Shown here: positions 5,185-17,289 of the stretch, piece after piece | Position numbering within the stretch: position 1 is the first letter of the stretch | Layout of the letters: every line of letters begins with the position of its first letter | IMG/VR virus record: IMGVR_UViG_2869891414_000007 | Span: 17,253-81,252 of that record | From: a virus | Taxonomy: Duplodnaviria > Caudoviricetes | DNA length: 64,000 bases | Direction: 5' to 3' (one strand) | Notes under the pieces: generated by a model | What the model saw: only the letters and a program-made list of their open reading frames with translations | Databases searched by the model: none | Told to the model about the DNA's origin: nothing | Made by a program: the position numbers and the translations under genes

Positions 5185-5578
5185 CCCGGAACGGCTGAAA
5201 ATGTTTGTTGATGGCGGGCGCATTGTCTCAACGTTAGCCCCGTCGCTCTCTTTTGAAAATCAATATACGCTGACGCTGTTTATTGAGGATTTTCCCAGTG
5301 ATGTTGATTACCTCTTTGTGCCGATTCTGGCATGGCTGCGCGAGCATCAACCGGACATCATGGCAACAGAAGAGAAGCGCCGCACCGGCTTTATTCATAA
5401 GGTCGATGTGATTAGCGATGTGCTGAGTGATATCCGTATCGACCTGCAACTGACTGAGCGGGCCATTGTGAAAGAGGTTGACGGTGCATTGCATGTTAAC
5501 CACGCGCTGGAACCGGCGTGGCCGGGTACGCCAACACGACCAACAGCCATCTACTTTAACGGCGAAGTGATCCCATGA
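5123..5578 (+). CDS. gpR: tail completion protein R
   Basis: MLKPKLLRQAL, WLREHQPD, IDLQLTER. Confidence 0.93.
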   Translation: MLKPKLLRQALTDSLQLFQTNPERLKMFVDGGRIVSTLAPSLSFENQYTLTLFIEDFPSDVDYLFVPILAWLREHQPDIMATEEKRRTGFIHKVDVISDVLSDIRIDLQLTERAIVKEVDGALHVNHALEPAWPGTPTRPTAIYFNGEVIP

Positions 5579-6024
5579 ATGAGCTGAAGCCCTTTGATGA
5601 TGCATTGGCCGGGCTGATTGCCAGTCTCACGCCCAAGGCGCGCAAAGCGCTGGCGGTGACGGTTGCAAAGCGCCTGCGGGCCAGTCAGCAACAACGCATC
5701 AAACGCCAGCAAGCGCCCGACGGCACCCCGTATGCCGCGCGTAAATCTCAACCGCTGCGTAAACCCAAGGGTCGGATTAAGCGGGAAATGTTCGCCAAGT
5801 TGCGCACCGCGCGCTATATGAAAGCCAACAGTAGCTCTGATGAGGCGGTGGTTGAGTTTGCCGGGCGCGTGGAACGAATGGCGGCAGTGCATCATTTTGG
5901 CCTGCGTGACCGCCCAAACGTATACAGCAAAGATGTGCAGTATGATGAAAGGCCGTTGTTGGGGTTTGATAAGAAACTAATTGATAGTATAGAAAAAATT
6001 ATTACATCCTCTTTTACAAAGTAA
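5575..6024 (+). CDS. gpS: tail completion/virion morphogenesis protein S
   Basis: QQAPDGTPY, MFAKLRTARY, HHFGLRD, ERPLLGF. Confidence 0.93.
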   Translation: MNELKPFDDALAGLIASLTPKARKALAVTVAKRLRASQQQRIKRQQAPDGTPYAARKSQPLRKPKGRIKREMFAKLRTARYMKANSSSDEAVVEFAGRVERMAAVHHFGLRDRPNVYSKDVQYDERPLLGFDKKLIDSIEKIITSSFTK

Positions 6025-6061
6025 TATTGTGACTTTTATTGTTCGCTACCAGCGAATTTAG

Positions 6062-6090
6062 TTGACCATTTGCGAACTTTGCTCTATTCT
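6062..6090 (+). promoter_or_regulatory. sigma70 promoter of the retron operon
   Basis: TTGACC-17 bp-TATTCT; predicted start about 6097. Confidence 0.65.
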
Positions 6091-6096
6091 AAATTT

Positions 6097-6558
6097 AACG
6101 TTACTGAAGAGAGAATCCGCCGGTTAGACCTGAGTAGTGATATTTACTACTTGTGGAGGATTTAGATCCTCTGTTTTTTTGCGCTGCCCTTGTGCTGTCC
6201 ACGGTGCTGCTACGAAGCTTCCCATGGCATGTTGTAGTGTATAGGCGTACTGCGTACTGATCGTGTTGGCGACATCACGATCAGATTGAATAGGGTTCAC
6301 TGCCAAAAACTCTCATTTCCTGATTATGGCGACCTAACAGCAATTCTGCTGTTAGTTATCAGGAATAAAATTTATGAAAAATAGTAACGCGTTTTGGCAG
6401 GCACTTAAGAAGAATGACACTAAAAAGAAGAAGCGGAAGCAAAAGCAGAAGCTTTGGAATATTGTAAAAGTACTGGTGAGAGCCGGTCTGTGTGTTTACA
6501 AACTCCTTAACTTCTTCTTTGGTGATAATGATGCTTAAGTGTGCCCTACCTTCAGTAA
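6097..6558 (+). ncRNA. retron msr-msd-like structured RNA (extent inferred), possibly enclosing the small ORF
   Basis: Hairpins agtagt/actact (~6133-6151), gaggat/atcctc (6156-6171), ctgatcgtg/cacgatcag (6257-6284), nested stem 6300-6400; 9-bp inverted repeat ttactgaag (6101-6109)/cttcagtaa (6550-6558); upstream of a retron RT. Confidence 0.6.
6374..6538 (+). CDS. 54-aa small basic/amphipathic protein, candidate retron effector (SP)
   Basis: MKNSNAFWQALKKNDTKKKKRKQKQKLWNIVKVLVRAGLCVYKLLNFFFGDNDA; AGGA RBS at 6361; shorter than any ORF in the supplied track, which omits it. Confidence 0.75.
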   Translation: MKNSNAFWQALKKNDTKKKKRKQKQKLWNIVKVLVRAGLCVYKLLNFFFGDNDA

Positions 6559-6569
6559 AGAGGTGATTT

Positions 6570-6887
6570 ATGATTAACCGAGCATTAAAAACCATCAGGC
6601 TATTCCATAACATAAAACAATCTGAACTTGCGGATAAGCTATGTATTTCAAAATCATACTTATCAGAGCTTGAATCAGGAAAAAAAACAGTCTCATTTGA
6701 TATATTAGAAAAATATTCTAATAATTTTGACATTCCAGTTTCATCACTGGTTTTTTTTGCTGAACGAATTAATGAACCGGGTAAAGATACAATTCCTGAA
6801 AAATTCAAAACTGTTTTTGCAGATAAAATACTTAAGATAATGGAATGGAGCATAGCGAGAGATGGCGAAAAAGAAAGGGAGAATTAA
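6570..6887 (+). CDS. XRE-family helix-turn-helix protein, retron accessory
   Basis: LKTIRLFHNIKQSELADKLCISKSYLSELESGKK; SD gaggtg; overlaps RT start by 26 nt. Confidence 0.92.
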   Translation: MINRALKTIRLFHNIKQSELADKLCISKSYLSELESGKKTVSFDILEKYSNNFDIPVSSLVFFAERINEPGKDTIPEKFKTVFADKILKIMEWSIARDGEKEREN

Positions 6888-7794
6888 TACTAAAGGCAAG
6901 TCTTATAGTATTAATGATAGCGCTTTATTCAATATTCAGAGTAAAAACAAGCTTGCGGAAGTATTACTGACAAACTTAGATAACATAAAAAGCTTATTAT
7001 CTAATGACAATTATATTGTTTTTGATAATACTAATGAAGATGGTAAAAAGCGGACTATTCAAACCCCATCAGATAAACTTAATGTTGTGCATACAAGAAT
7101 AGCGAGTTTACTATGCCGTATAACTCAACCAGAATATGTCCATTCAGGAATAAAAAATAAATCTAATGTATCCAATGCCAGAAAACATGTAGGTACACAC
7201 CCTGTATTAACGTCTGATATACGCTCATTTTTTCCTTCGACATCTAAGCGCCAAGTCTTCAATTTTTTTAATAGGAAATTGAAGTGCGCTGCTGATGTAT
7301 CAGACCTCATGGCGGAATTGTGTACGTATGCGAACCATATACCTACAGGCAGTCGAATAAGTATGCCTTTAGCATTCTGGGCAAACTATGACATGTTTAA
7401 TGAAATGAACATAATTTCAAATAAATTAAATATAACAATGACTGTTTATGTTGATGATATTACTTTTTCTGGCAATGCTGTTAATAGACTGTTTCTTCAT
7501 AAATGCAAGAGAATAGTGGAAAAGAATGGCCATGTTTTACATCCAAAGAAAACAGCCCTCTACTCTGCTAAAGAGCCTAAGACCATTACAGGTGTTATTG
7601 TTCATGAAAATGAAATTAAAGTAAGAAATTTACATTACAAGAAAATTTATTTTGATTTAGATGCGTGGAAGAAAACTGACGACGCCATAGAAAAAGAAAA
7701 CTTAAAAAACAAGGTTCTTGGTCGAATGCATTCTCTTTCTACTATTAATGAAAAATTCAAAGATAAAGCACGAAGCTTTCGGTCCATTGATTAG
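6862..7794 (+). CDS. retron-type reverse transcriptase (type VI-like)
   Basis: Region X NARKH, DIRSFFPS, YVDD catalytic motif, region Y ITG; 310 aa, no fused domains; AT-rich. Confidence 0.92.
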   Translation: MAKKKGRINTKGKSYSINDSALFNIQSKNKLAEVLLTNLDNIKSLLSNDNYIVFDNTNEDGKKRTIQTPSDKLNVVHTRIASLLCRITQPEYVHSGIKNKSNVSNARKHVGTHPVLTSDIRSFFPSTSKRQVFNFFNRKLKCAADVSDLMAELCTYANHIPTGSRISMPLAFWANYDMFNEMNIISNKLNITMTVYVDDITFSGNAVNRLFLHKCKRIVEKNGHVLHPKKTALYSAKEPKTITGVIVHENEIKVRNLHYKKIYFDLDAWKKTDDAIEKENLKNKVLGRMHSLSTINEKFKDKARSFRSID

Positions 7795-7830
7795 CTGCAA
7801 AACTTTTCATAACAAAAGTCTTGTTGATGT

Positions 7831-7848
7831 TGTGTAGTACCTGATACA
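7831..7848 (+). promoter_or_regulatory. Ogr site of late promoter PV
   Basis: TGT-N12-ACA (tgtgtagtacctgataca) upstream of gpV. Confidence 0.7.
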
Positions 7849-7894
7849 ACCCCTCATTATTGAAGCAAGTAACTATTAGTTACATGCTTCCCTC

Positions 7895-8536
7895 ATGAAT
7901 ACTCAAACCCAAATCACTGAAATTCTGCGCCTGCTGCGCAACCTTATCCGTATTGGTACGGTGGCTGAGGTCGATCTCGACCAAGCCCTGTGCCGTGTGG
8001 CGACAGGGGACAATACCACCGGCTGGTTAAACTGGCTGACGCTTCGCGCCGGTCAATCACGTTCATGGTGGGCACCGTCTGAGGGCGAACAGGTATTGAT
8101 ATTGTCCCTCGGTGGCGAACTCGACACCGGCTTTGTGTTGCCGGGCATTTTCTCTGATGACTTTCCGCCACCGTCGGCCTCGGCCAATGGCTTGTATATC
8201 GCTTTTCCTGACGGTGCCACGTTGCACTATGAGCCGGAAAGCGGCGAGTTGCTGGCAGATGGAATCAAAACAGCGGTTATCAATGCCAGTGAATCGGTGA
8301 ATGTTACCGCCCCCAATATCACCTGTACCGCCTCGGTGAAAATCCTTTTAGACACGCCCGAAGTTGAATGCACTAACAACCTGACCACCGCCACCTTGAA
8401 TGTGATCCAAGGCGGCAAGATGAGTGGTGATATTGAGCACTCAGGCGGCCAGTTCTCATCCAATGGCGTGGTAGTCGATAAGCATGACCATGGCGGTGTG
8501 TTGCGCGGCGGGGATTATACGGAGGGGATTAAATGA
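7895..8536 (+). CDS. gpV: baseplate spike protein V
   Basis: NLIRIGTV, WWAPSEGEQV, terminal H-x-H iron-binding motif (KHDHGGV). Confidence 0.95.
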   Translation: MNTQTQITEILRLLRNLIRIGTVAEVDLDQALCRVATGDNTTGWLNWLTLRAGQSRSWWAPSEGEQVLILSLGGELDTGFVLPGIFSDDFPPPSASANGLYIAFPDGATLHYEPESGELLADGIKTAVINASESVNVTAPNITCTASVKILLDTPEVECTNNLTTATLNVIQGGKMSGDIEHSGGQFSSNGVVVDKHDHGGVLRGGDYTEGIK

Positions 8537-16803: not shown

Positions 16804-17289
16804 ATGATGTTATCACTGGGTTTATTTGTCTTTATGCTACAAACCACCCCTTATCAAAGCATGGGACGCAATATTGATTATCGTTGGCCCACTAACAGCC
16901 GGGTAGGCTTGCGCCCGGCGGCGCAATTTCTTGGCGTAGATAGCGAAAAAATGACGCTATCCGGGGTATTACTACCGGAACTGACAGGCGGCCGCCTGTC
17001 GTTGCTGGCTCTAGAGGTTATGGCTAACCAAGGCAAAGCATGGCCGCTGATTGAGGGGAGCGGCATGATATACGGTATGTTTGTGGTTGAAAGCCTGAAC
17101 CTGACCCGCAGTCTGTTTTTTGCAGATGGCTGCGCCCGGCGCATTGAGTTCACCCTCAATCTGTTGCGGGTCGATGAGTCGTTAACCGCCATGTTCGGCG
17201 ACCTGCAACAACAGGCTGACGAGTTGCTGGGTAAAGCGACGGCCATGACCGGTAAAGCGCAGACAGCTATCGGGGGGTTATTCTCATGA
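16804..17289 (+). CDS. gpU: tail protein U
   Basis: MMLSLGLFVF, WPLIEGSG, RRIEFTL. Confidence 0.94.
   Translation: MMLSLGLFVFMLQTTPYQSMGRNIDYRWPTNSRVGLRPAAQFLGVDSEKMTLSGVLLPELTGGRLSLLALEVMANQGKAWPLIEGSGMIYGMFVVESLNLTRSLFFADGCARRIEFTLNLLRVDESLTAMFGDLQQQADELLGKATAMTGKAQTAIGGLFS

Follow-up and report, generated by a model that had tools for sequence, protein, structure and literature searches.

The closest described relatives of the element considered here, a nested hairpin at positions 6300-6400 of a 64,000-nucleotide stretch of Caudoviricetes DNA (IMG/VR record IMGVR_UViG_2869891414_000007, positions 17,253 to 81,252; the whole stretch is termed the window, and coordinates are those of the window unless a locus is named), are Type VI retrons, a class reportedly taken from the classification of Mestre et al. 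2020, in which genes for a small protein (SP), a helix-turn-helix (HTH) protein and a reverse transcriptase (RT) lie together. In Retron-Vpa2 of Vibrio parahaemolyticus, a hybrid RNA (hyRNA) of ~470 nt combines msr-msd with the coding sequence of SP, stem-loops enclose the ribosome-binding site and start codon, and SP is translationally repressed; multicopy single-stranded DNA (msDNA) is necessary, and in trans sufficient, for SP translation (Zhang et al., bioRxiv 10.1101/2025.10.22.683967). The same work describes reporter data placing control at the level of translation, toxicity on deletion of the noncoding RNA or mutation of the HTH protein, strong enrichment of the hyRNA in RNA-seq, and conserved 7-nt direct repeats in the msd loop and the riboregulator loop, regarded as a possible hybridisation site; Retron-Eco12 of Escherichia coli was also tested (10.1101/2025.10.22.683967). 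In Sen3, a member of the cl2075 lineage, single-stranded DNA (ssDNA) and SP are made constitutively, tagged SP is detectable without phage, and the HTH protein acts as a post-translational antitoxin, the ribosome-binding site being nonetheless predicted to be sequestered (Garcia-Rodriguez et al., bioRxiv 10.64898/2026.04.27.721009).

Comparison with these systems argues that the window hairpin, which spans the initiation region of an SP gene, is a functional RNA under conservation, with its homologue in the riboregulator arm of the Vpa2 hyRNA. By homology with Vpa2, it is probable that 6300-6400 constitutes the riboregulator arm of a ~460-nt hyRNA, in which a block on SP synthesis would be relieved by msDNA. 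The helices of the hairpin, and of an upstream hairpin considered with it, are as follows.

6257-6284 (+): H0, the upstream hairpin, 9-bp stem, the loop of which carries the first copy of the repeat TGGCGAC
6300-6308 (+): P1, outer helix, 9 bp with 6392-6400, found by repeat scan and fold
6313-6316 (+): TCAT of the start-codon helix, 4 bp with ATGA at 6374-6377, in the minimum-energy fold
6317-6324 (+): 5' arm of P2, the anti-Shine-Dalgarno strand, 8 bp with 6358-6365
6358-6365 (+): 3' arm of P2, holding the Shine-Dalgarno sequence AGGA at 6361-6364
6334-6355 (+): P3, apical hairpin, 6334-6342 with 6347-6355, 9 bp, 4-nt loop

The four nested helices from P1 to P3 were proposed in an earlier note made from the letters of the DNA. 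All four complementarities can be read in the sequence, three of them being listed as perfect by the repeat scan, and when 6290-6410 is folded with RNAfold the minimum-energy structure comprises exactly these helices. Its energy is -32.2 kcal/mol, compared with -21.8 +/- 3.4 kcal/mol for dinucleotide shuffles (z = -3.09; none of 200 as good), and a fold of the entire putative 466-nt transcript, 6097-6562, retains the hairpin (-147.1 kcal/mol, z = -4.8). With the exception of the 4-bp start-codon helix, the structure as a whole is far beyond chance. The AGGA precedes the ATG (6374) by 9 nt, SP codons 7-9 (F-W-Q) make up the 3' arm of P1, and there is no U-run 3' of P3.

For the comparative analysis, 128 loci encoding RT homologues were gathered from viral, metagenome and genome collections, and their HTH and SP genes were located. 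By eye, the same layout is repeated 5' of nearly every SP gene, with helix sequences that differ between loci. A covariance model (R1) was seeded with nine sequences, using the four proposed helices together with H0; MAFFT alignments (A2, A3) were, by themselves, out of structural register and were used as seed only. Of the 82 sources searched with R1, 69 contained the element, in each case on the coding strand and immediately before the SP gene. In the resulting 69-locus alignment 89.2% of cells are paired for the structure as a whole, compared with 59.6% on shuffling and 35-46% when the partners are slid by 1-3 columns, and double changes occur at all 39 pairs. For the individual helices the values are:

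H0: 97% paired, double changes at 9 of 9 pairs
P1: 95% paired, double changes at 9 of 9 pairs
P2: 91% paired, double changes at 8 of 8 pairs
P3: 81-90% paired, double changes at 9 of 9 pairs
Start-codon helix (TCAT/ATGA): 57-61% paired, equal to the shuffle baseline, double changes at 4 of 4 pairs

The covariation across homologues that the earlier note proposed as a check was thus found for P1, P2 and P3, each of which is kept with compensatory changes. P1 is kept despite the coding role of its 3' arm: for the F-W-Q, N-Q-Q, E-Q-Q and D-Q-Q versions of that arm alike, the 5' arm has the matching sequence. The P3 loop region carries a conserved CAATTYCG-like sequence.

The link to Vpa2 comes from a second model, R2, built from the 69 loci with Vpa2 excluded. 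A V. parahaemolyticus locus (L130) was identified as Vpa2 by its 55-aa SP with K15, I39, F43 and F45 and by R7 of its HTH protein, the landmark residues being those mutated in the Vpa2 paper. R2 matches L130 at 1373-1543 over all 156 of its positions (72.7 bits, E 8e-14); the nine-sequence model R1 had missed this locus at E <= 1. L130 folds into a three-tier hairpin of the same kind, with GGACGAA in both loops. In the RT tree the window falls within a 41-row clade that contains the Vpa2 RT (support 100/99), the proteins of the two retrons being 48% (RT) and 43% (HTH) identical. The RT clade, the R2 match and the fold of L130 together group the window retron with Vpa2, and on this comparative evidence it belongs there, its hairpin being the homologue of the riboregulator arm. 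The earlier note suggested that a similar model had been proposed for type VI retrons, so that the locus might add a member to a known mechanism instead of revealing another one; this homology bears the suggestion out.

The analysis also bears on what the hairpin conceals. The pairing probability of the Shine-Dalgarno sequence in the window is 0.96, compared with 0.64 when the upstream sequence is shuffled, and an alignment-free calculation gives a mean of 0.77 over the 69 loci, compared with 0.59. By contrast, the AUG is paired no more than in shuffles, either in the window (0.60 versus 0.59) or across the 69 loci (0.50 versus 0.56), and the start-codon helix, although in the minimum-energy structure, is absent from the centroid. 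Hence, of the proposal that the hairpin buries both the Shine-Dalgarno sequence and the AUG, the first part stands, P2 being conserved, and the second is not supported, the start-codon helix not being conserved. As judged from the 69 loci, what has been conserved is thus sequestration of the ribosome-binding site and not of the AUG, which is located in an A/U-rich internal loop outside the conserved pairing. In this respect the comparative data would refine the published Vpa2 model, in that conserved sequestration concerns the Shine-Dalgarno sequence and not the AUG.

The 3' side of the internal loop (6366-6391) is a 26-nt, A/U-rich, unpaired segment containing the AUG, and might be a ribosome standby site. 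On its 5' side, between P1 and P2, the motif AACTCTCAT (6308-6316), inside which the TCAT of 6313-6316 falls, is among the most conserved stretches of the element and is kept single-stranded by the model. AACTCTCAT is complementary to GAGAG at 6109-6113, adjoining the a1-like arm described below, and such pairing would form a pseudoknot with P1; alternatively, the motif may be a protein contact.

A second conserved feature is a direct repeat shared by H0 and the hairpin.

6267-6273 (+): TGGCGAC, copy 1, in the H0 loop
6327-6333 (+): TGGCGAC, copy 2, in the internal loop that separates P2 from P3

The core of the repeat is usually GGCGA and is equal in both copies in 57 of 65 loci; where variants occur, they too are present in both copies (GGTGA, GACGG, GGACGA, GAGGA, GTGCGA). 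When both copies come from one locus, their longest common substring has a mean length of 6.27 nt, compared with 5.13 nt for mismatched pairs, a difference reached in none of 2000 permutations. An extension of the repeat in the 3' direction is seen in the window, where 6327-6338 and 6267-6278 are identical at 10 of 12 positions; as a family feature it was rejected, being weak across loci (35% identity versus 27% shuffled). The concerted change of the repeats fits pairing of an msDNA copy of one with the other, and it fits equally well two sites for a single protein.

The cDNA predicted from H0 would pair with 6309-6345 at -17.8 kcal/mol, compared with -10.7 +/- 3.0 kcal/mol for shuffled sequences (17 of 500 as good), and in the window locus it is predicted to pair both with the repeat in the loop and with CUGAU at 6320-6324. 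A possible, if somewhat doubtful, interpretation is that the repeats are part of a natural ssDNA-triggered, riboswitch-like device of the Yersinia/P2 sub-lineage, in which H0-derived msDNA docks at 6327-6333 and displaces CUGAU 6320-6324. If true, the specificity of the trigger would be encoded in a short, evolvable sequence common to template and sensor.

The explanation that we favour, i.e. a Vpa2-type block on SP relieved by msDNA, would operate through the three-tier arm P1/P2/P3, in which P2 pairs the SP Shine-Dalgarno sequence with the upstream strand. By homology with Vpa2, in the uninfected cell a complex of RT, HTH protein and hyRNA would keep SP translation off; phage recombination or anti-RecBCD functions would then allow msDNA to accumulate, and the msDNA would lift the block, with SP being made and growth stopping. 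The sequence further suggests how the block might be lifted: the msDNA copy of the H0 loop, carrying the complement of TGGCGAC 6267-6273, may anneal to the repeat at 6327-6333, and its pairing with the CUGAU of the anti-Shine-Dalgarno strand may act as a toehold that opens P2.

Several points weigh against this explanation, or against parts of it. Translational repression, and its relief by msDNA, would apply to the window locus by homology, the experimental basis being that for Vpa2, with which the identity of the RT is only 48% and the similarity of SP marginal (E 0.054). In a nearest-neighbour model, the Shine-Dalgarno sequence stays 96% paired when 6327-6333 or 6327-6338 alone is blocked, and is freed only with 6320-6324 blocked too; pairing to the anti-Shine-Dalgarno strand reaches at least 4 nt in only 21 of 54 loci. 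The covariation counts derive from a model-fitted alignment, which favours the structure, and the permutation tests are uncorrected for shared ancestry; the slid-partner controls and the alignment-free test agree with the model-based pairing result. Finally, Sen3, a fellow Type VI retron, combines a predicted masked site with constitutive SP (10.64898/2026.04.27.721009), so repression cannot be taken as proven wherever masking is predicted.

The last point leads to the alternative that survives best, which is that the window retron works as Sen3 does, with the hairpin being a scaffold for binding of RT and HTH protein, SP being constitutive and neutralised by the HTH antitoxin, and the masking having little regulatory effect. 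The detection of tagged Sen3 SP without phage (10.64898/2026.04.27.721009) is in line with this, as are the sequence conservation of the loops (the GGCGA repeats and the CAATTYCG-like apical loop), which would be expected of protein-binding sites, the fit of the concerted repeats to two sites of one protein, and the toxicity of HTH loss in Vpa2 too (10.1101/2025.10.22.683967). The affinities of the window locus are, however, with Vpa2. Its RT groups with that of Vpa2, and between it and the Sen3-like loci L138 and L141 runs the longest internal branch in the tree; its SP, at 54 aa, is close in length to that of Vpa2 (55 aa) and not to the 79-aa protein that bears the N-terminal extension of cl2075; R2 has a match in Vpa2 and none in the cl2075 loci; and the compensatory changes in P2 preserve the pairing of the Shine-Dalgarno sequence. 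The Sen3-like loci L138-L141 encode a 79-aa SP with S22 and K79 landmarks and an RT ~28% identical to that of the window, and were matched by neither R1 nor R2. With an SP of 54 aa and an RT outside the subclade, the window retron differs from the cl2075/Sen3 lineage on both counts, and we consider a Sen3-like mode of action unlikely for it. That the RNA model is without a match in Sen3-type loci fits the two reported mechanisms being lineage-specific.

Much less probable is that the structure serves the stability or processing of the transcript, through RNase protection or definition of the hyRNA, with any effect on translation being a by-product. The high enrichment of the Vpa2 hyRNA in RNA-seq (10.1101/2025.10.22.683967) and the enclosure, in the window, of the entire SP coding sequence within closed helices would be accommodated by such a role, but it leaves the Shine-Dalgarno sequence as the constant partner in P2, and the concerted repeats, unexplained, and the Vpa2 reporters show control at the level of translation (10.1101/2025.10.22.683967). 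That the helices are chance palindromes, or a transcription terminator or attenuator without a specific role, is scarcely credible, for while A/T-rich inserts are rich in short inverted repeats (21 in 571 nt here) and a terminator-like hairpin lies upstream at 6153-6174, the fold is well beyond shuffles (z = -3.1), P3 is without a U-run, and covariation over 69 loci, with double changes at every pair, contradicts it.

The Vpa2-type reading has further support in the setting of the hairpin, the genes of which are arranged as follows.

6374-6538 (+): gene for SP, a 54-aa protein that is lysine-rich in the middle and has a hydrophobic helix at its C-terminus
6570-6887 (+): 105-aa HTH protein of the XRE/Cro-C1 type, an accessory protein of Type VI retrons
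6862-7794 (+): retron RT, 310 aa, 26-nt overlap with the HTH gene

In a PADLOC profile search the RT was called RT_VI (3.4e-104, 278 of 279 profile positions; the runner-up retron type gave 1e-40) and the HTH protein HTH_VI (6e-36), the latter also matching Pfam HTH_3 (1.9e-12). The gene order is that of Type VI retrons, with the HTH gene immediately 5' of, and overlapping, the RT gene, and the SP gene 5' of the HTH gene. By these profile calls the SP-HTH-RT locus is thus a Type VI retron. SP, presumed to be the toxic effector, was assigned no family by Pfam and PADLOC searches; syntenic open reading frames (ORFs) in most loci have the same lysine-rich middle and hydrophobic C-terminal helix. 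An Rfam search of window positions 5500-8500 matched no family, the sole match being a chance snoRNA (E 0.11).

The carrier of the retron is a P2-like Yersinia prophage. In sequence the stretch shows 99.8% identity to vB_YenM_56.17, an inducible phage of Yersinia enterocolitica, in the GenBank record of which (OM046627) SP is labelled a hypothetical protein; the publication on this phage makes no mention of a retron. The insertion lies between the P2-type gene gpS (5575-6024) and the gpV spike gene (7895-8536). A Serratia fonticola prophage (L134) has a retron in the same slot, and the presence at one junction of two retrons with RTs only 53% identical suggests that Type VI retrons have repeatedly used the space between gpS and gpV in P2-like prophages as a cargo slot. 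No match to the window retron was found in E. coli genomes by megablast, and a genome scan with a single protein returned one near-identical Yersinia locus and nothing else. One locus of enterobacterial origin (L137) is matched by the RNA model at 1216-1419 (55.9 bits) and encodes a 36%-identical RT and a 67-aa small ORF; tblastn finds no HTH gene at this locus, which may be an HTH-less variant.

The hairpin appears to be one arm of a larger RNA, the remaining features of which are listed here.

6062-6090 (+): promoter-like site, TTGACC, 17 nt, TATTCT; 9/12 in the consensus scan, matches being no commoner than in shuffles
6101-6109 (+): a1-like 5' arm of the outermost helix, complementary at 9 of 9 positions to 6550-6558, 440 nt apart
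6153-6174 (+): terminator-like hairpin, 9 bp, followed by a seven-T run (to 6180), in the 5' msr-like part
6291-6296 (+): 5' arm of helix J, pairing with 6543-6548 just past the SP stop
6543-6558 (+): 3' strands of two helices, helix J (6543-6548) and the a2-like closing repeat (6550-6558), adjoining the HTH ribosome-binding site

In the fold of 6097-6562, terminal inverted repeats close a multi-arm RNA around the SP coding sequence. The outermost helix (6101-6109/6550-6558) is present in both minimum-energy and centroid folds and closes the putative hybrid RNA; in a duplex test of the outermost repeats with long windows, own arms paired at -16.0 kcal/mol and arms taken across loci at -15.6 kcal/mol (625 of 5000 permutations as good). 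The first arm, 6110-6290, contains two hairpins (one with a U-run), a long imperfect stem and H0, from which the 5' stem-loop of the msDNA may be copied. Helix J, kept across the listed loci with compensatory variants, e.g. CACAGAG with CTCTGTG, surrounds both the riboregulator (6300-6400) and an arm made of SP coding sequence. This third arm consists of the SP coding sequence beyond codons 7-9 and is closed by 6401-6409 with 6534-6542.

The hairpin with its T-run at 6153-6180 may act as an attenuator, form an element of the msr, or terminate the gpR-gpS operon that precedes it. At ~1203-1240 of the Vpa2 locus L130, in the equivalent 5' region, there is likewise a hairpin followed by a T-rich stretch.

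Compared with classic retrons (Eco1/Ec86, Sen2/St85), the window retron shares an RT, a structured RNA template and an abortive-infection logic; in the former, however, abundant msDNA is the antitoxin and the effector protein is already present. Engineered toehold switches likewise mask the Shine-Dalgarno sequence in a hairpin, which a complementary trigger opens by binding to a single-stranded toehold. These are synthetic and RNA-triggered, whereas the trigger proposed for the window is ssDNA made by the retron, and, in the nearest-neighbour model, the loop toehold of the window alone leaves P2 closed. The natural repeat variants GGTGA, GACGG and GAGGA offer ready designs, swaps of which could separate msDNA hybridisation from protein binding.

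The E. coli Type VI retrons (L012 and relatives), found in 100 of 5426 complete E. coli genomes, have the same operon and are matched by the RNA model, but their RT is ~47% identical to that of the window, the SP N-terminus is different, and the 3' arm of P1 encodes E-Q-Q instead of F-W-Q. Carriers include O157:H7 strains, with NZ_CP016625 as a chromosome example, and E. coli gene callers can fuse SP with an upstream in-frame ATG, giving a spurious ORF of 97-99 aa.

Sen3 shares with the window locus the Type VI combination of SP, HTH protein and RT, with the SP gene in a structured transcript and its ribosome-binding site predicted to be masked, and defends against phage lambda via the Red and RecBCD axis. 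It differs in that its 79-aa SP has a ~25-residue N-terminal extension, compared with the 54-aa SP of the window, and in that its control is post-translational with constitutive ssDNA.

The most extensive likeness is to Vpa2. The SP-HTH-RT operon and the RT clade are shared, as are an outer helix whose 3' arm falls within the coding sequence of SP, the anti-Shine-Dalgarno helix and the apical hairpin, the 7-nt direct repeat in an upstream hairpin loop and in the riboregulator loop, and the multi-arm RNA of ~460-470 nt closed by terminal inverted repeats. The two differ in the sequence of the repeat (GGACGAA in Vpa2, TGGCGAC in the window), in residue 7 of the HTH protein (R7 and K7, respectively) and in location, the window copy being in the gpS/gpV slot of a P2-like prophage and L130 being without adjoining phage genes; the mechanism has been shown experimentally for Vpa2. 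Preprints have already presented this mechanism as well as a covariance model that covers the family, and the window retron is a new, uncharacterised, prophage-borne example. By homology with Vpa2, it would extend the "inverted" Type VI logic, in which msDNA is an activator of toxin translation and not an antitoxin, to a P2-like inducible phage of Yersinia enterocolitica.

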